DNA from: a virus
Reading direction: 5' to 3' (one strand)
Length of the DNA: 64,000 bases
IMG/VR virus record: IMGVR_UViG_3300022723_000207
Location: 32,001-96,000 of that record
Below are positions 46,890 through 64,000 of the stretch, in pieces. The notes beneath the pieces were generated by a model. That model was not told the DNA's origin, ran no database searches, and was given only the letters and a program-made list of their open reading frames with translations. A program made the position numbers and the translations under genes. Each line of letters starts with the position of its first letter. Within the stretch, counting starts at the first letter, position 1.

Positions 46890-47573
46890 GTGATGGACTT
46901 GGGTACCGCTAAATTGATTCTTGAAGACACACTGTTGTCCTCTACTGCTGAGGGCAATCAAGTTATTCGTGATTACTCTGCTTTTAAGCTTACTAGATCA
47001 CCAGAAGTTGTAACTGAAAATGTTAATGGTAGGACCAAGAAATTTACGAGGTTAACTGGTTTAATCCAGAAAGCGGACACGCCTAACGAAAATGGTCGTG
47101 TTTACCCTTCTGAGGTCATGCGAGAGGCTCTTGAGGCACTAAAAGAGCCAATCGAAGCACGTATGGTTCTTGGTGAGTTAGACCATCCAGATGACGCTAA
47201 GATTCATACTGAAAATGCTTGTCTGTTGTTAACCAAGATTTGGATGGAAAATAAAGACGTTTATGGCCAGTTTGAGATTTTAGAGGGTATGCCTAAGGGC
47301 CAGATGCTCAAATCTCTAATTGATCAAGGAGTTACGATTTCTATTAGTAGTCGCGGTGTAGGCGACATGGAAATTGAACTCATGGAAGATGGGTCTGAGG
47401 TTAACAAAGTCCTCCCTGGATTCCGTTTTGTCTGTTTTGATGCTGTAAACGAGCCATCTGTTAAGGGTACCAAGCTTAATGTGATGGAGAGCAAGCAGCG
47501 TCAGGCCCGTGTGGAGCGTCGCCGTAGTGGCGAGAAGCAGTTAGTATCTGCTATAAAAGAATTCCTTAAGTAA
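46890..47573 (+). CDS. gp21: prohead protease
   Basis: QKADTPNENGRVYP, LGELDHP, ISSRGVG, FDAVNEPS. Confidence 0.95.
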   Translation: MMDLGTAKLILEDTLLSSTAEGNQVIRDYSAFKLTRSPEVVTENVNGRTKKFTRLTGLIQKADTPNENGRVYPSEVMREALEALKEPIEARMVLGELDHPDDAKIHTENACLLLTKIWMENKDVYGQFEILEGMPKGQMLKSLIDQGVTISISSRGVGDMEIELMEDGSEVNKVLPGFRFVCFDAVNEPSVKGTKLNVMESKQRQARVERRRSGEKQLVSAIKEFLK

Positions 47574-50968: not shown

Positions 50969-52483
50969 ATGAAACCAAATCGTCGTCAAGCCACGTTGCT
51001 CGCTGAGGCTAAGTCCAATCAGCAAGTTAAGCGTTGGGCCAAGGTTCTCAACAAGATGCCTGAGGTGCAGTCCAAAGGCAAGATGCAGCTCATGGCTGCT
51101 ATTCTTGAGAATCAGCACTCCCACATGGTGGGCGATGGCTCTCCTCAGAGCAGCCTTCTGACTGAGAACTCTCAGGCCGTCTCCACCGGCAACATTGCGG
51201 ACTTTACCCGCTTTGCTCTGCCCCTTCTGCGTAAGAGCTATCCCAAGCTAATCGCTGACAATCTCGTGGGTGTTCAGCCCATGAGCCAGCCAGCTAGCTT
51301 GCTGTTCTATATCCGCTACCGTTACGCTCTGACCAAGGGTCAGACCCAGGCTGGTACGCAGATCATGCGTCAGAACACCAGCCAGCAGTTCAGCCGTCAG
51401 AACGGTTGGGCGCTCGATCCTTACTACAGCTCCCAGACTGTTAAGGATGAGTCTCTGGCTATTGCTGGTGGTGTTATTTCTGGCAACCTCGTTCACAAGC
51501 CTGTGCTCGCTGGTACTGTGGTTGTTAACGTCTTCGCTGAAGACACCGACAGTTGCGATACCCCTGATCCGCTGATCCAGGTGACCTTCGATGCCAATGG
51601 CGATCCAGACGTTGTTGTTCAGTCTGAGGATGTCACTTCAGCTCTTAGTGTTGATACTGGTAGCTCCAGCTTCAACAATGACACTGGCGATGTGACTGTT
51701 ACTCTGACCGGTGGTTCTCTGCCTGCTGGCGCTTTTGCGACTGTAGACTATGAGTTCGACCTTGAGAACAACCCGTTCCAGCCTGAGGTTACTCTCAGCA
51801 TCGATAGTGATAGCGTTTCTGCTCTCACCCGTAAGCTGAAGACCTCTTGGAGCTTGGAGGCCGCTCAGGACCTTAAGTCGGTGCACAACATCGATGCCGA
51901 GGCCACCCTGACTGACCTGCTGGGTGACGAGATTGTCGCGGAAATCGATCGTGAAATCATCAATGACCTGATCATTGCTGCTAGCGTTCGTGCGACCCAC
52001 AACTTTGCTACCGCTGCTGGCGCGTCAGTGAACTTCGTGGACCGTAACATCGCGCTGCTCTACAAGACTCTGGAAGTTGCGAACGTTATCCACCGTACCA
52101 CTCTGCGCGGCCCTGCCAACTGGATGGTTACTTCGGCTGACATCGCTTCCAAGTTCGAGCAGCTCAATGACTTCCGTGGTTCTGACGCTCTCGCTACTGA
52201 TGGCATCGACATTGGCATCACCAATGCTGGTACCATTCAGGGCAAGATGAAGCTTTACAAGGATCCGCTGTTCCCGAACTGCAAGATCCTCATGGGCTTC
52301 AAGGGCAACAGCGCACTGGACGCGGGCTACTTCTACGCTCCGTACATTCCGCTGCTCAGCACCCCAACTGTGCTGGACCCGAACAGCTTCACTCCAAACA
52401 AGGGTGTTATGACCCGGTACGGCAAGAAGCTGATCGAGGATGGCGGCCTCTTTTATGCCACAGTGAACGTTAGTAACCTTTAA
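50969..52483 (+). CDS. gp23: major capsid protein
   Basis: AILENQ, LIADNLVGVQPM, RKLKTSWSLEAAQDLKSVHNIDAE, EIDREII, FYAPYIPL, PNKGVMTRYG. Confidence 0.97.
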   Translation: MKPNRRQATLLAEAKSNQQVKRWAKVLNKMPEVQSKGKMQLMAAILENQHSHMVGDGSPQSSLLTENSQAVSTGNIADFTRFALPLLRKSYPKLIADNLVGVQPMSQPASLLFYIRYRYALTKGQTQAGTQIMRQNTSQQFSRQNGWALDPYYSSQTVKDESLAIAGGVISGNLVHKPVLAGTVVVNVFAEDTDSCDTPDPLIQVTFDANGDPDVVVQSEDVTSALSVDTGSSSFNNDTGDVTVTLTGGSLPAGAFATVDYEFDLENNPFQPEVTLSIDSDSVSALTRKLKTSWSLEAAQDLKSVHNIDAEATLTDLLGDEIVAEIDREIINDLIIAASVRATHNFATAAGASVNFVDRNIALLYKTLEVANVIHRTTLRGPANWMVTSADIASKFEQLNDFRGSDALATDGIDIGITNAGTIQGKMKLYKDPLFPNCKILMGFKGNSALDAGYFYAPYIPLLSTPTVLDPNSFTPNKGVMTRYGKKLIEDGGLFYATVNVSNL

Positions 52484-52511
52484 TTAGGAAATCTACCGTC
52501 CACAGAATTTC

Positions 52512-52543
52512 AAAAAAACCTCGCCATTGTGCGAGGTTTTTTT
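52512..52543 (+). terminator. bidirectional intrinsic terminator after the capsid gene
   Basis: AAAAAAACCTCGC-cattgt-GCGAGGTTTTTTT. Confidence 0.9.
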
Positions 52544-52574
52544 GTATATATATAATTAAGACGGAGAATTTTCG

Positions 52575-53396
52575 ATGGCCAGTTTACTTAAACCAAATCA
52601 ATGTCTTAAATGTGACAATAAAGAAAATTTTATTCATCTTAGAAAGCCAGAAAGATGGGCATGCGGCAACTGTGATGAAGTAATAGTGCAAAGGCCAGGA
52701 AGAGGAGAATCTGGAGTATGCAGGGATTGTGGTGCCAAAAAAGAAGATGGAGTCCAATTTAAAAAGAATAAAAATCAGTGCATGGAATGTTATGCAATTT
52801 ATCAAAACAAGTATAGAGAAAAAAGGAAAGATGATTTAAATTCTAATAAGAGGAGATGGTATGCTGATAATCAGAAAGAACTTAGGATTAGAGCTAGAGA
52901 TTATGTTCAGCAGTCTCCAGAAAGATTTTTAATAGATCTGGCTAGAAGAACTAGGCACACAGCGCAAAAGAGAAAAAAAGAAAAAGCTGAATATAACATA
53001 GAACACAAAGACCTTCAAGAAATTTATGATTCTAAGAATGGTCTATGCAATATAACTGGATTGAAAATGAAACATGAATATGGGTCATTATATTCAATAT
53101 CTGTTGATCGCATAGACTCTGATAAAGGGTACATCAAAGGTAACGTTCAATTAGTTTGTAAAGGTGCTAATTTTCTCAAGAACAAGCACACACAAGAAGA
53201 GACGCTTAAGTTTTTAGACGACTATTTTGAAGCGAGAGCTGGCAGTAATGTCCTTAAATATGTAAAATCCAGAGAAAGACGATTTCATGAATGTGATTGC
53301 GGCAGAATAGTAACAGATGATGAATGGGACAGTGATGGCAATTGGTGTAACAATTGTCTAGAAAGATATTGGGAAGAAAAAGATAATCAGTATTAA
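52575..53396 (+). CDS. HNH (beta-beta-alpha-Me)-type endonuclease with Zn fingers, likely mobile
   Basis: GLCNITG...SVDRIDSDKGYIKGNVQLVCKGANFLKN; several CxxC. Confidence 0.75.
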   Translation: MASLLKPNQCLKCDNKENFIHLRKPERWACGNCDEVIVQRPGRGESGVCRDCGAKKEDGVQFKKNKNQCMECYAIYQNKYREKRKDDLNSNKRRWYADNQKELRIRARDYVQQSPERFLIDLARRTRHTAQKRKKEKAEYNIEHKDLQEIYDSKNGLCNITGLKMKHEYGSLYSISVDRIDSDKGYIKGNVQLVCKGANFLKNKHTQEETLKFLDDYFEARAGSNVLKYVKSRERRFHECDCGRIVTDDEWDSDGNWCNNCLERYWEEKDNQY

Positions 53397-54292: not shown

Positions 54293-54329
54293 TGTGTCAA
54301 ACTTGTAAGAGACACTCGGTCGAAGGATC

Positions 54330-54363
54330 AAAAGAACCCCGCCGTTGTGCGGGGTTCTTTTTT
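54330..54363 (+). terminator. bidirectional intrinsic terminator
   Basis: AAAAGAACCCCGC-cgttgt-GCGGGGTTCTTTTTT. Confidence 0.9.
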
Positions 54364-54382
54364 ATATAAAATATGACTTGTT

Positions 54383-55843
54383 ATGGAACAAGAATTATCA
54401 GATAAGATAACAAATTTATTTAATGATGGGTTAACCCATCAAGAAATTGGTGATACTATTGGCAAGCCTCGCAGGACAGTAATGAAGCTGTGTGGGAAAC
54501 TTGGGTTAAAAAGATCCAGAGCAGAGGCTGCATCGTTAAAAACTAAGTCTCCTCTAGATGATCCTGAGATAATTAAATTCATAAGGAACAACAGAAATTC
54601 TTTGTCGTTAGAGGAGATAGCCAAAACATATAACTCATCTATAAGCTCAGTTCAGAGAATATGTGATAAATATGAGATTATTTTAGATAAAAAGAGATTT
54701 GTAAAATCTCAGTCTACTAAAATGAAAAATGCTTGGGACGATAATAAAAAAGAGAAAGCTAGAGATAAAAGTTTAAAATTGGTTACGCCAGAACTGAAAC
54801 AGAAACTTTCTGATGGATCTAGGAAACTGTGGAGTAACAACGATTATAGAGAAAAGCAGGTAAAGATTCAGACAGAAATATGGAATAAGCCAGAAAACAG
54901 GAAAAGGTTAGCTTTATGGAGGGCCAACCAAAGTGGCAGGTTGTCGTCAATACAGAAAATTTTATATTCTATCCTAGATGATTTAGGAATTAAATATTTT
55001 AAAGAAGGCAACCATACTGATAAAGAGTGCATTATTGGTCCCTACAATTTTGATTGTGTAATTCCTAGACCCAATGATAGAGATTTAGTTATTGAATGCC
55101 AAGGTGATTATTGGCACACTCAGGATAAAGCGATAAGAATTGATAAATCTAAGGCAACTTATTTGGAGAAATATTGTTCCAACACACATGAATTGAAATA
55201 TTTATGGGAACATGAATTTGCTTGCCAAAATAGGATTGGTGAACTGATAAAATATTGGACTGGATTAACTGATAACCAAATTGAAAATTTTGATTTTGGT
55301 GATCTGGACATAAAAAGATCAAAAGCTGAAGAATACAAACTGTTGCTATCAAAGTATCATTATTTGCCAAATGCAGGTAAAGGTGGAATGGCTTATGGAG
55401 CTTATTTTGGTGATGAATTGATTGCTGTATGTGTGTTTTCCAAGTTGGTCAGGCAAAATATTGAGATTGATGGGTTTAATAAAAATGAAGTAATTGAATT
55501 ATCTCGTCTTTGTATCCATCCAAATTATCAAAAGAAAAATCTTGCTAGTTGGTTTGTTAGTAGGTGCATTAAAAAGTTAGATGTTTCAATTAAGTGTATC
55601 GTTAGTTACTGTGATACCACTCATAATCATGATGGGGCTATTTATAAATCACTAAATTTTGTTAATGATAAAGAGGTAAGACCAGATTATTGGTATACTA
55701 ATGAGAATGGGTGGGTGATGCATAAAAAGACTTTGTATAATAAGGCTGTTAAAATGAACATTGTAGAATCTGAGTATGCCAACAAATTTGGGTATAAAAA
55801 GATATTTGGATCCAAAAAATTGAGATTTGTGTTTAAAAGATAA
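54383..55843 (+). mobile_element. HTH + Vsr/DUF559-like endonuclease + Mom-like GNAT fusion (copy 3)
   Basis: SSIQ...GPYNFDC...IECQGDYWH...LWEHE; YHYL...YGAY...ELSRLC...NLASW...SYCD..HDGAIYKSLNF...GWVMHKKTLY. Confidence 0.75.
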
Positions 55844-59405: not shown

Positions 59406-59684
59406 ATGAGTAAGAAGCGTTACATCTGTGCTGGGCCACGAGCAAATGAGCCTGATGCTAATGGTATAATCTATCCGAAGGAAGTTTTGCAAAAAGCTAT
59501 CGAAGAAGCGCAATATAGAGTTAAGGAAGGCAAAATGCTGGCCCATTGTGGGTCAGGCTGTGGGTCAGGCTGTGGGTCAGGCTATGAGGTAGAGTTAGAC
59601 AAGATTGTTGGAATAGTGCGCAGCTTAGACTTAGAAGATGATAGAGTGATTATAGAAGTAGAAAGTTTGGACAACCAGGAATAA
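59406..59684 (+). CDS. truncated, catalytically dead prohead-protease-like protein
   Basis: ANEPDANGIIYPKEVLQKAIE aligns with ADTPNENGRVYPSEVMREALE of gp21; no GELDHP or SSRG. Confidence 0.6.
   Translation: MSKKRYICAGPRANEPDANGIIYPKEVLQKAIEEAQYRVKEGKMLAHCGSGCGSGCGSGYEVELDKIVGIVRSLDLEDDRVIIEVESLDNQE
59547..59582 (+). repeat. 12-nt tandem repeat x3 (TGTGGGTCAGGC, encoding CGSG)
   Basis: Three perfect copies. Confidence 0.9.
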
Positions 59685-61624: not shown

Positions 61625-61697
61625 CTAACTTACATATATCAGAGGGATGGTATATATGACACGTTAGTTGGGCTAAACATTGTGAAGGAACAAATAC

Positions 61698-62483
61698 GTG
61701 GCTGATCGAGTTGCTAAATTTGATAGGCTTGTTTTCCCAATAATTAAAAATATGCCGTCATTTGGTAAGTTTGTTGATGGTGATTTTTCTGGTGTTGATT
61801 TTGAAGCTTTCCAAACTGATCGAGAATTCAATAAAGACGATTATCGTGTGTGGTTTCAAGAAATATGTGATAGCCAGGGCATTGAAAATCAGCATCGTTT
61901 TGCTGTGGCGACTATATTGAAAGAACTAGAGATTTTGTTATACACCCCAGAGGACGTTGCTGGTAGTGGCATCATCAACGATCTAGTTGGTGTTCAACCT
62001 ATAATGGCACCAACAGAGTTAAGGTATAGGTATACAATGACTATTAATTTTTATCATCCTGATGAGAAATATGGCTGTTTCTCTAATTTTTCTAGGCATG
62101 AAGTTGATCTGGGCGGTTATGTTTGGCCAACTAGTGAACATTATTATCAAGCGCAAAAATTTGAGGATCATGATATTCAAAAAAGAGTGCGTAATTGCAA
62201 AGGGCCTGGCGCAGCACGAGGGATGGGGCGTGATCGATCATTACCGCTTAAGAAAAATTGGGAACAGATTAAAGACGATGTGATGTATAAGGTGGTGCTT
62301 GCTAAATTCACGCAGCATAGGCATATTAAAGAAATCCTACTGGGTACTGGTCATAATCATTTAGTTGAGAAATCACCAATCGATTATTATTGGGGGTCTG
62401 GAGCAGATGGAACTGGCCAGAACAAGCTTGGTAGGACACTTATGAAAGTAAGAGAATATTTATCTAATAGTCGTTTCCTTTAG
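61698..62483 (+). CDS. capsid-protein-like N-terminal segment fused to a NADAR domain
   Basis: NADAR from 62037: INFY...YGCFSNF...WPTSEHYYQAQKF...AKFTQH...LVEKSP.DYYWG.G.DG.GQNKLG..LM.VRE. N-terminal part contains IINDLVGVQPIMAP..LRYRY. Confidence 0.8.
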   Translation: MADRVAKFDRLVFPIIKNMPSFGKFVDGDFSGVDFEAFQTDREFNKDDYRVWFQEICDSQGIENQHRFAVATILKELEILLYTPEDVAGSGIINDLVGVQPIMAPTELRYRYTMTINFYHPDEKYGCFSNFSRHEVDLGGYVWPTSEHYYQAQKFEDHDIQKRVRNCKGPGAARGMGRDRSLPLKKNWEQIKDDVMYKVVLAKFTQHRHIKEILLGTGHNHLVEKSPIDYYWGSGADGTGQNKLGRTLMKVREYLSNSRFL

Positions 62484-62582: not shown

Positions 62583-63215
62583 ATGAATGAAAGATTTAAA
62601 GAATGGGCAACCAGCATATTAATGGATTCTGGGATAGTGCCATGTAAATTGGATGACACCTTAAGCGGCCTGTTAGCATATTATAATAATGGCAGGTATT
62701 ATCATAATCCTGCTCACATCCTCTACATGTTGGATCGCATGGAAGAAGCTGGTTGGACCAGCACTAATCTTTCTTTTGCGATTTTATTTCATGATGTGTA
62801 CTATGCGCTTGGGGTTGGGCGTGGTGTTAATGAAAGAATTAGCGCCGATATAGCCCTACGATCTTTAGAAGATTGCCTTTATATCTTTCGTGATTGTGCT
62901 GCTATTGAAAGAATGATTATGGCAACTGCAGATTTTATGGATTCAATTCACACAGATACAAACTGCCAGAAGATTTGTGATCTAGATCTTTCTTCATTAG
63001 CTCGTGAACCTTATGAAGATTTTGTTTATCAACAGAGAGAAATTTTGATGGAGAACGGTTTAGGAGTTGAGCATCTTCATAAATCCGCGTATTTTTTAAA
63101 CACGCTATTAGAAAAACGAGGTGATGATTTGTTTTATACTGATTACGGTAAAAAGCACTGGCTAGATAAGGCAAAAGATAATATCCAAAGGTTAGAAAGT
63201 GATTATGGTTCATGA
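62583..63215 (+). CDS. HD-domain phosphohydrolase (COG4339-like)
   Basis: RYYHNPAHI, AILFHDVYY, NERISA, CDLDLSSL. Confidence 0.8.
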   Translation: MNERFKEWATSILMDSGIVPCKLDDTLSGLLAYYNNGRYYHNPAHILYMLDRMEEAGWTSTNLSFAILFHDVYYALGVGRGVNERISADIALRSLEDCLYIFRDCAAIERMIMATADFMDSIHTDTNCQKICDLDLSSLAREPYEDFVYQQREILMENGLGVEHLHKSAYFLNTLLEKRGDDLFYTDYGKKHWLDKAKDNIQRLESDYGS

Positions 63216-63240
63216 TTGCTGCTATTTTGTTAAAAATAAT

Positions 63241-64000
63241 ATGATTACACAAATAGCGGTTGCTGACTCTTATGGTGCAGCTTATGAGTTTGCTCCTAAG
63301 CCACCGCTTAATGATTTAAAATTTCATAAGCATCCTAATCGAAAAGACGATTTAGTGGAAGGTGAGTATACTGATGATACTCAGATGACGCTGGCGATCA
63401 TGCGCCATATGATTAGTGATAAGCCTTGGAATCAATATTGGATCGCTTGGCATTTTTTGGATGAATACCGCAATTATAGTATTGATGGGTATGCTAGAAG
63501 ATTTCAAAAGTTTTTAGATGATTGCCGATCTATTAATGATTTTGTGTCTAAGATATCTCCTAAATCCAAGAGAAATGGTAGCGTAATGCGCTCTGTTCCA
63601 ATTGGGGTGTTACCCACGCCTGAGGATGTTGTTAATTATTCTTATATTCAGTCATCAGTTACTCATGCCACCCCATCAAGTTGTATTAGTTCAGCGTCAG
63701 TTGCTTTAGCGTCTCACTACTACTATCATGATCTAGGTCCTAAATCTAAGGTTTCTGAATATCTAAAAGGAATCCTGGGATTTTCACTTAAGCGAGTGGA
63801 CACTAAAGTAGCTTGTGATGCTGTGGAGACGGCCCACGCTGCTCTTTGGATATCCAAAAGCACCGATGATTTAGACTTAGCTATGAAAAAGGCGGTAGAT
63901 CTAGGGGGTGATACCGATTCGGTAGCAGCGGTTGCTTGTGGATTAATATCTATGAGACCCGGTTTGAATGATGAAATGGAATTAACTAGCCTTTTGTCAG
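63241..64000 (+). CDS. ADP-ribosylglycohydrolase (DraG/ARH family), truncated by the window end
   Basis: Hand translation: AVADSYGAAYEF, YTDDTQMT, NGSVMR..PIG, VTH, GGDTDSVAAVA; no stop before 64000. Confidence 0.85.
   Translation, partial: MITQIAVADSYGAAYEFAPKPPLNDLKFHKHPNRKDDLVEGEYTDDTQMTLAIMRHMISDKPWNQYWIAWHFLDEYRNYSIDGYARRFQKFLDDCRSINDFVSKISPKSKRNGSVMRSVPIGVLPTPEDVVNYSYIQSSVTHATPSSCISSASVALASHYYYHDLGPKSKVSEYLKGILGFSLKRVDTKVACDAVETAHAALWISKSTDDLDLAMKKAVDLGGDTDSVAAVACGLISMRPGLNDEMELTSLLS

Follow-up and report, generated by a model that had tools for sequence, protein, structure and literature searches.

The locus examined here encodes a protein in which a NADAR domain is preceded by a stretch that resembles the major capsid protein (MCP) of the same phage. 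Phage NADARs are an established counter to the ADP-ribosylation of DNA, and what determines their cellular specificity is still being sought (PMC11125620, PMC11825919). In the gene at 61698..62483 of the window (the whole stretch of 64,000 nucleotides that has been analysed), a NADAR of the YbiA type is joined to an N-terminal module (N-module) apparently derived from that stretch of a T4-type capsid protein which is conserved best and makes contact with the host. The question raised by this fusion is whether the N-module changes the destination of the NADAR, be it the virion, the chaperonin or a sensor complex, or the defence that is beaten by it. Genes that mimic the capsid N-terminus recur in this phage clade and, as one half of the fusion has a known and assayable activity, the fusion provides a practical handle on the function of the mimic.

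One reading frame with two possible starts

A first-pass annotation, made from the DNA letters, had described a capsid-like part that runs in frame into a complete NADAR domain. The assembly agrees with this description: a single open frame of 261 aa extends over both halves without a stop between them (Table 1), and the NADAR profile of Pfam (PF08719) is matched over nearly its full length. At the junction the other two frames both contain stops, and the fusion frame has none. The first possible start, GTG 61698, is preceded by a Shine-Dalgarno (SD)-like element whose duplex energy of -5.7 kcal/mol is stronger than that of the median gene (-3.4 kcal/mol, 38 window genes), whereas the start chosen by the gene caller, ATG 61752, has an SD score of 0. 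The separate start at 62037 that the annotation had allowed for has gained weight, since this ATG (M114) coincides exactly with the start position of stand-alone NADARs and follows an SD-like AGGT, the energy of which (-3.9 kcal/mol) is about the median of the same 38 genes. An internal start at this position would yield a free NADAR beside the tagged NADAR, and both products are plausible. A reported upstream motif, CAAACGTAAT, has been rejected as a candidate signal; its frequency is not above chance and it is absent 5' of the fusion gene.

Table 1. Positions of the fusion gene, its predicted parts and the related genes discussed in the text; entries beginning with L are contigs of related phages.
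Feature	Position	Strand	Remarks
Whole ORF, capsid-N-terminus mimic module plus NADAR	61698..62483	+	ORF reading, Pfam
N-module, residues 1-113	61698..62036	+	Rare family of ~110-aa phage proteins
NADAR module, residues 114-261, YbiA subfamily	62037..62483	+	Separate production from ATG 62037 possible
SD-like AAGGA	61685..61689	+	8 nt 5' of GTG 61698; anti-SD duplex -5.7 kcal/mol
SD-like AGGT	62028..62031	+	5 nt 5' of internal ATG 62037; -3.9 kcal/mol
First motif of the first-pass annotation, residues 5-17	61710..61748	+	Weak alone, HMM domain i-E 7
Predicted small helical core, residues ~31-90	61788..61967	+	AlphaFold2, alignment A6; block-mean pLDDT 72-84
MCP-like region, residues ~61-112	61878..62033	+	Colinear with MCP ~72-119, 11-residue insert (MAFFT)
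Gol-like motif, residues 92-112	61971..62033	+	Core LVGVQP; predicted flexible
MCP, gp23 family, putative source of the mimicry	50969..52483	+	PF07068 E 4.2e-81; T4 gp23 structures E 7e-30
MCP N-arm / Gol-equivalent stretch, residues 72-119	51182..51325	+	Aligned to T4 gp23; nearly invariant in 30 relatives
Prohead protease	46890..47573		Family S77 (gp21-type)
92-aa ORF resembling S77 protease N-terminal part	59406..59684	+	BLASTP vs 46890-47573 E 0.002; phrog_207 E 0.018
HD-type phosphohydrolase-like gene	62583-63215	+	phrog_19425
ADP-ribosylglycohydrolase	63199-64000	+	PF03747; start overlapped by HD gene; runs off the window
Stand-alone N-module homologue, 111 aa (G007)	L098 1429-1764	-	BLASTP E 2e-4
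Orthologue of the 59406..59684 ORF, 154 aa (G007)	L106 4854-5318	-	Without the repeat
Mini-capsid gene, 128 aa	L011 16724-17110		MCP N-arm copy, Pfam Gp23 above cut-off
Mini-capsid gene, 163 aa	L089 1423-1914		MCP N-arm copy, Pfam Gp23 above cut-off
Mini-capsid gene, 200 aa	L076 18347-18949		MCP N-arm copy, Pfam Gp23 above cut-off

Likeness of the N-module to the major capsid protein

The window lies within a 153-kb IMG/VR record that is estimated to be 42% complete, and relatives of its MCP, with identities of 70-94%, are found in uncultured phages of 320-395 kb. That the N-module resembles the Gol-equivalent stretch of this phage's own gp23-type capsid protein, as had been proposed, has been borne out by shuffled controls, by a hidden Markov model (HMM) and by profile-profile comparison. 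BLASTP of residues 1-113 against the MCP has aligned residues 92-112 with MCP 95-119 at 13 identities in 25 positions, and the Smith-Waterman score of 55 (shuffle mean 30.6, sd 4.5, z about 5) has been reached by 2 of 3000 shuffles. An HMM of the MCP N-terminus, built from 61 related sequences together with this phage's own and with the mimic proteins excluded, has returned the N-module ORF as the only non-MCP match (E 2.6e-4) among the 889 stop-to-stop ORFs of the genome. The comparison of profiles by hhalign has given a probability of 92.5% (E 4.8e-7), and tblastn of the N-module against the MCP genes of relatives has given E-values from 5e-5 to 1e-2. The likeness of residues 1-113 to a gp23 profile depends on the profile used: it is recovered by the clade-specific HMM, whereas Pfam and PHROGs hold no match for the N-module and Pfam Gp23 (PF07068) gives none at E up to 1.

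Of the two motif pairs that had been put forward, the second (residues 92-112 against MCP 95-119) is real, and the first (residues 5-17 against MCP 79-91) reaches an i-E of 7 when taken alone. The homologue of the N-module in a related phage (G007) favours another placement, in which residues ~64-77 match the MCP 79-91 stretch. A colinear copy of the whole propeptide has been considered and set aside as weakly supported; tblastn speaks for it, and the HMM splits the match. MCP 72-119 aligns to T4 gp23 about 84-131, a range that holds the segment quoted as Gol in the first-pass annotation. On this alignment, residues 92-112 would be positionally equivalent to the T4 Gol segment, where the equivalence is that of the quoted segment, the published Gol region being given as 29 residues without coordinates (PMC3014915). 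The SD-like element of ATG 62037, AGGTATAGGTAT, also encodes the RYRY with which the match ends; the match remains strong without RYRY.

It is highly improbable that the N-module is unrelated to the MCP and resembles it by chance, even though the significant stretch comprises about 20-25 residues only, its RYRY part has a second role as an SD-like element, Pfam Gp23 is silent, and phmmer, run exhaustively against 1.84 billion proteins, has returned no capsid protein. The few shuffles that reach the score here have no counterpart in the G007 homologue, which resembles its own MCP over 65 residues with a score reached by 0 of 1500 shuffles. Moreover, what is matched is the best-conserved stretch of the capsid protein, the core of the match is kept in all three members of the family described below, and relatives carry unambiguous copies of the capsid N-terminus. 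There is no nucleotide similarity between the N-module region and the MCP gene, from which we take the copy to be old and preserved in its protein sequence. Judged from these comparisons, the 113-aa N-module is a diverged copy of the MCP N-terminus, that is, a mimic or diverged MCP fragment and not a capsid protein.

A small N-module family and capsid copies in relatives

Among 1.84 billion representative proteins, the only phmmer match of residues 1-113 has been P0002 (E 1.6e-5), a protein of 109 aa that is encoded on a 17-kb Logan contig, ends shortly after an LV-x-VQP core and, on its own, bears no significant likeness to the MCP. A third member, the stand-alone ORF in G007, a phage whose MCP is 83% identical to that of this phage, has come from a search of relatives for the motif. 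The three sequences (alignment A6) share 28-35% identity over about 110 aa, with a helical core followed by I-x-[DN]-L-V-[GS]-V-Q-P-[MI]; in P0002 and the G007 ORF the core of this motif has been conserved while the remainder has drifted to about 30% identity. Two of the three members are separate proteins that contain hardly anything else, so that the mimic region there is no mere tag. Further searches have not enlarged the family: searches of word indices have recovered nothing beyond P0002 and the protein of the window itself, neither the full protein nor P0002 has matched anything in scans of viral contigs, a phage collection has contained no near DNA match and no match covering the N-module, and the ESM Atlas has offered sub-threshold leads only. 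Apparent upstream extensions in the phage collection have been dismissed as read-through of an intergenic gap (e.g., Stenotrophomonas phage AXL1).

Clearer copies of the MCP N-arm occur in relatives of this phage. The three mini-capsid proteins of Table 1 cover only Gp23 profile positions ~2-77, are 51-63% identical to their own MCP and have no DNA similarity to it. P0003 and P0004 exceed the Pfam Gp23 cut-off, PF07068 is given for P0005 (174 aa) as a precomputed annotation only, and P0004 and P0005 are orthologues that are 69% identical within the copy. This identity and the persistence of the relatives' copies at the protein level without nucleotide similarity argue for selection. The idea of one tag on many different cargoes has been abandoned, since the four clear capsid-copy proteins of relatives have one common C-terminal domain of ~90 aa and so form a single mini-capsid family. 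In L089, two ORFs downstream of the mini-capsid gene (1911-2228 and 2225-2497) look like untagged paralogues of this C-terminal domain. Partial copies are seen in G002 (L090 1426-1689) and G011 (L097, G011 182506-182589), short ORFs in which the first half of the MCP N-arm stretch is kept and divergence sets in before the VQP core. Short proteins annotated as "major head protein" make up PHROG 12830 (128 positions), and an ESM Atlas cluster of 87-aa viral proteins has 102 members with Pfam Gp23 in 95% of them; short capsid N-terminal proteins may be widespread.

The fusion itself has not recurred among the 43 related records or the 22 viral NADAR loci that have been inspected, so the first-pass proposal of a selected "bait plus antidote" design rests on one genome. 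In 16 further viral contigs the NADAR lacks a long N-terminal extension, the one relative with a NADAR (G001) lacks the extension as well, and no NADAR is present in G007. Three giant-virus NADARs are fused to unrelated large proteins. The giant-virus NADAR domains of L108-L111 lie at the C-terminus of very large proteins, one of them RNA polymerase subunit-like; three related ones carry an acidic linker. From this distribution, two separate accessory genes have apparently become one frame in this lineage. It is unlikely that the fusion is accidental or unreal, with a recent stop loss or a consensus error at the junction and with mimic and NADAR acting apart, the latter made mainly from ATG 62037. 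Such an origin would agree with the separation of the halves everywhere else and with the native NADAR start at M114 and its SD-like AGGT; however, the assembly has no in-frame stop where the other two frames both stop, GTG 61698 has the stronger SD, and neighbouring counter-defence genes often fuse and may remain functional when they do.

Predicted shape of the N-module

AlphaFold2 with the three-member alignment has placed helices at residues 46-59, 64-76 and 84-88 of the predicted core. The confidence of the N-module model is low to moderate (mean pLDDT 60); residues 1-27 and the Gol-like stretch 91-113 have pLDDT <50, and the motif has remained <50 in both models, that of the N-module and that of the full-length protein. 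The full-length model contains no confident contact between N-module and NADAR and otherwise agrees with the N-module model. Considering these predictions, the Gol-like motif is most likely an exposed linear peptide.

The NADAR half and its probable activity

The NADAR half is intact. Residues 118-255 match PF08719 with 139.4 bits (cut-off 35.1; E about 3.2e-41 to 1.6e-40, Pfam) over profile positions 2-162 of 163, and E. coli YbiA (PDB 2B3W) aligns end to end with this half over 141 residues (E 1.7e-42). The 22 residues that do not vary among 16 viral NADARs have all been kept, both active-site glutamates, E147 and E224, among them. The AlphaFold2 model of residues ~111-260 has block-mean pLDDT values of 83-98, mostly >90, and shows alternating helices and short strands, so that the half is predicted to have the YbiA fold with its five core helices and small flanking sheets. 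The residue in the last strand is Glu in YbiA, Asp in BC4488 and His in the gp30.3 phage NADARs (PMC11125620). In the model E224 lies in the last strand (221-224), where it aligns to LVE of YbiA and is invariant in the 16 viral NADARs; by this Glu, sequence and model assign the half to the YbiA subfamily. The AdfN/T4 gp30.3 family profile (PF08010, Phage_30_3) is matched with 16-18 bits against a cut-off of 36, which leaves the protein outside that family, and PADLOC has reported only a NADAR-type match.

The label "ADP-ribose eraser" of the first-pass annotation is sound as regards an intact NADAR, and it needs to be narrowed in that the domain is of the YbiA type and not of the T4 gp30.3 type. 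In vitro, every NADAR type that has been tested, that of YbiA among them, takes ADP-ribose off guanine in DNA (PMC11125620), and the label is well founded as family knowledge, by which the NADAR half would remove guanine ADP-ribose from DNA. AdfN (T4 gp30.3) and YbiA share fold and family with the NADAR half, which keeps the family-invariant residues; phage NADARs strip guanine of ADP-ribose, and DarTG1 is countered by AdfN (PMC11825919, PMC11543638), also during phage infection (PMC11825919). By analogy with T4 AdfN, the NADAR half should blunt DarT1- or YarT-type toxins. The differences are that gp30.3-type NADARs carry His in the last strand, where Glu is found here, and that in one study neither YbiA nor the T4 NADAR rescued cells from DarT1 toxicity (PMC11125620). 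We only infer an AdfN-like working of this half.

Genomic neighbourhood

The fusion gene lies 9 kb downstream of the MCP gene on the same strand. Downstream of it follow the HD-type gene and the ADP-ribosylglycohydrolase, and an RlaP-type nucleotidyltransferase is encoded upstream. NADAR, HD gene and ADP-ribosylglycohydrolase are three consecutive ADP-ribose or nucleotide-processing genes. A "dead protease copy" nearby, as it had been called, has turned out to be a look-alike of the protease N-terminus, weak in its likeness, 2 kb upstream of the fusion. This ORF holds a perfect (CGSG)x3 repeat and is possibly a companion mimic, going by its sequence. The pairing recurs in G007, where the orthologue lies 3 kb from the Gol-like ORF, and the protease look-alike is the only gene common to the two 17-kb neighbourhoods (this genome, G000, and G007).

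Further upstream, an ORF just downstream of the capsid module (54383-55843, +, 486 aa) joins HTH-like pieces and a nuclease piece similar to REase_MTES_1575 to a Mom-family GNAT domain. The MCP gene and the DEAD-like gene each end in a strong hairpin terminator, rich in GC and with a T run (52484-52574 and 54293-54382), which is followed directly by a TATATA-rich box before the next gene, and an HNH/EndoVII-like gene (52575-53396) stands immediately after the MCP terminator.

Possible roles of the capsid mimic

The Gol stretch of T4 is the most conserved part of gp23 and binds domains II-III of EF-Tu (PMC3014915); according to later citations, the N-terminus of gp23 guides proteins fused to it towards GroEL (Snyder and Tarkowski 2005, cited in PMC3012670, PMC10052503), and newly made gp23 triggers CmdTAC, an ADP-ribosyltransferase defence (PMC11618068). 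Against this background, we tentatively prefer to read the N-module as a competitive mimic of the unassembled capsid N-terminus that an event specific to this lineage has joined to an anti-ADP-ribosylation enzyme. The N-module family is a diverged duplicate of the MCP N-terminus, with a predicted helical core and a flexible tail in which the most conserved capsid stretch is kept, and the mimicry itself would be its function. This is suggested by the two members of three that are little but mimic, and by the mini-capsid and protease look-alikes, which also stand alone. The exposed tail would then compete for binders of the unassembled capsid N-terminus, the T4 partners of which are EF-Tu and GroEL, contacts that capsid-sensing defences such as Lit and CmdTAC exploit, so that the N-module might act as a decoy or competitor within a counter-defence island. 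The conservation of the motif core while the rest has drifted, the flexible tail on a helical core and the counter-defence context point in this direction. In this lineage the N-module would have become fused in frame to an adjoining counter-defence gene, and the fusion may put the eraser beside the partner of the mimic.

Several points count against competitive mimicry. By analogy with T4, a Gol-like peptide would be expected to switch a Lit-type system on and not off, which speaks against a decoy. Furthermore, P0002 does not resemble the MCP significantly on its own, the fusion is present in one assembly, the N-module model is of low to moderate confidence, and the cell experiments with DarT1 offer no support for an in vivo effect of a YbiA-type enzyme in that one study (PMC11125620).

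The main rival assigns the N-module to the prohead, where it would make the contacts of the MCP N-terminus (scaffold core, S77 protease), so that the NADAR would be packaged and injected with the DNA as an antidote. We consider such a head-loading handle possible, though on the unlikely side. It accounts for the fusion more neatly than competitive mimicry, an S77 gp21-type protease is present, and the position 9 kb downstream of the MCP gene on the same strand suits it. In the T4 prohead, the N-terminal region of gp23 is disordered and faces the interior (PMC9958956), and a survey has argued that NADAR, Macro and ART proteins are often packaged in the virions of myoviruses (PMC9503650). In T4, diverse counter-defence proteins (internal proteins, Alt) are loaded via a common leader, and a gp21-type protease is present both there and here (PMC3012670). 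The T4 leader, however, is a 10-residue N-terminal peptide unrelated to gp23, whereas the module here is about 110 aa long, apparently capsid-derived and usually cargo-less, and a T4-type leader ending in [L/I]-x-E has not been found at residues 1-12. All three members do contain [I/L]-x-E tripeptides some 15-20 residues ahead of the motif, in almost identical places of the alignment, but such tripeptides are expected by chance about once per 100 residues, so that internal sites are not distinctive. Head loading also leaves the two cargo-less members unexplained, the stretch of the MCP cleavage site is deleted in the G007 homologue, and the N-arm itself is a putative loading signal.

It is improbable that the mimic serves chaperonin routing or assembly control, by sending its cargo to GroEL and the phage co-chaperonin or by tuning the folding and assembly flow of the MCP. 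The GroEL-directing property cited for the T4 gp23 N-terminus would favour this role, but the 17-kDa NADAR folds alone in all other phages, and the context is one of counter-defence and not of morphogenesis. The single-chain "bait plus antidote" of the first-pass annotation is, in our estimation, distinctly improbable. Here the bait would dock on the sensor of a capsid-triggered, ADP-ribosylating defence, be it a chaperone sensor like that of CmdTAC or a complex of the EF-Tu/Lit kind to which an ADP-ribosyltransferase is coupled, and would bring the NADAR to the site of toxin release, the protease look-alike being a second bait.

Relation to known systems

The NADAR half is of a known kind, and an N-terminal capsid mimic on a YbiA-type enzyme is new, given that YbiA-family proteins have been described as "naked" domains without extensions (PMC11125620), whereas the protein here bears an N-terminal module of 113 aa. 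A literature search has found no description of phage proteins made in imitation of the N-terminus of the phage's own capsid protein. The mimic motif aligns with the same gp23-type stretch as the T4 Gol segment; Gol, however, sits in the capsid protein, whereas the motif here, in a comparison by sequence, is carried by a non-capsid protein as a predicted flexible tail with about half of its residues matching the phage's own MCP. CmdTAC links newly made gp23 with an ADP-ribosylating effector and is the one published system on which both a capsid look-alike and an ADP-ribose eraser would act (PMC11618068). Unlike the NADAR target, guanine in DNA, the target of CmdT is the adenine N6 in RNA. We know of no NADAR that reverses this adenine N6 modification. 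Another ADP-ribose eraser of jumbo phages, the DarG2-like antitoxin of Chimalliviruses, resides in the phage nucleus and has an effect that depends on its location; it differs from the fusion protein in its family (a macrodomain), in its principle of localisation and in the phage group to which it belongs (PMC13309987).
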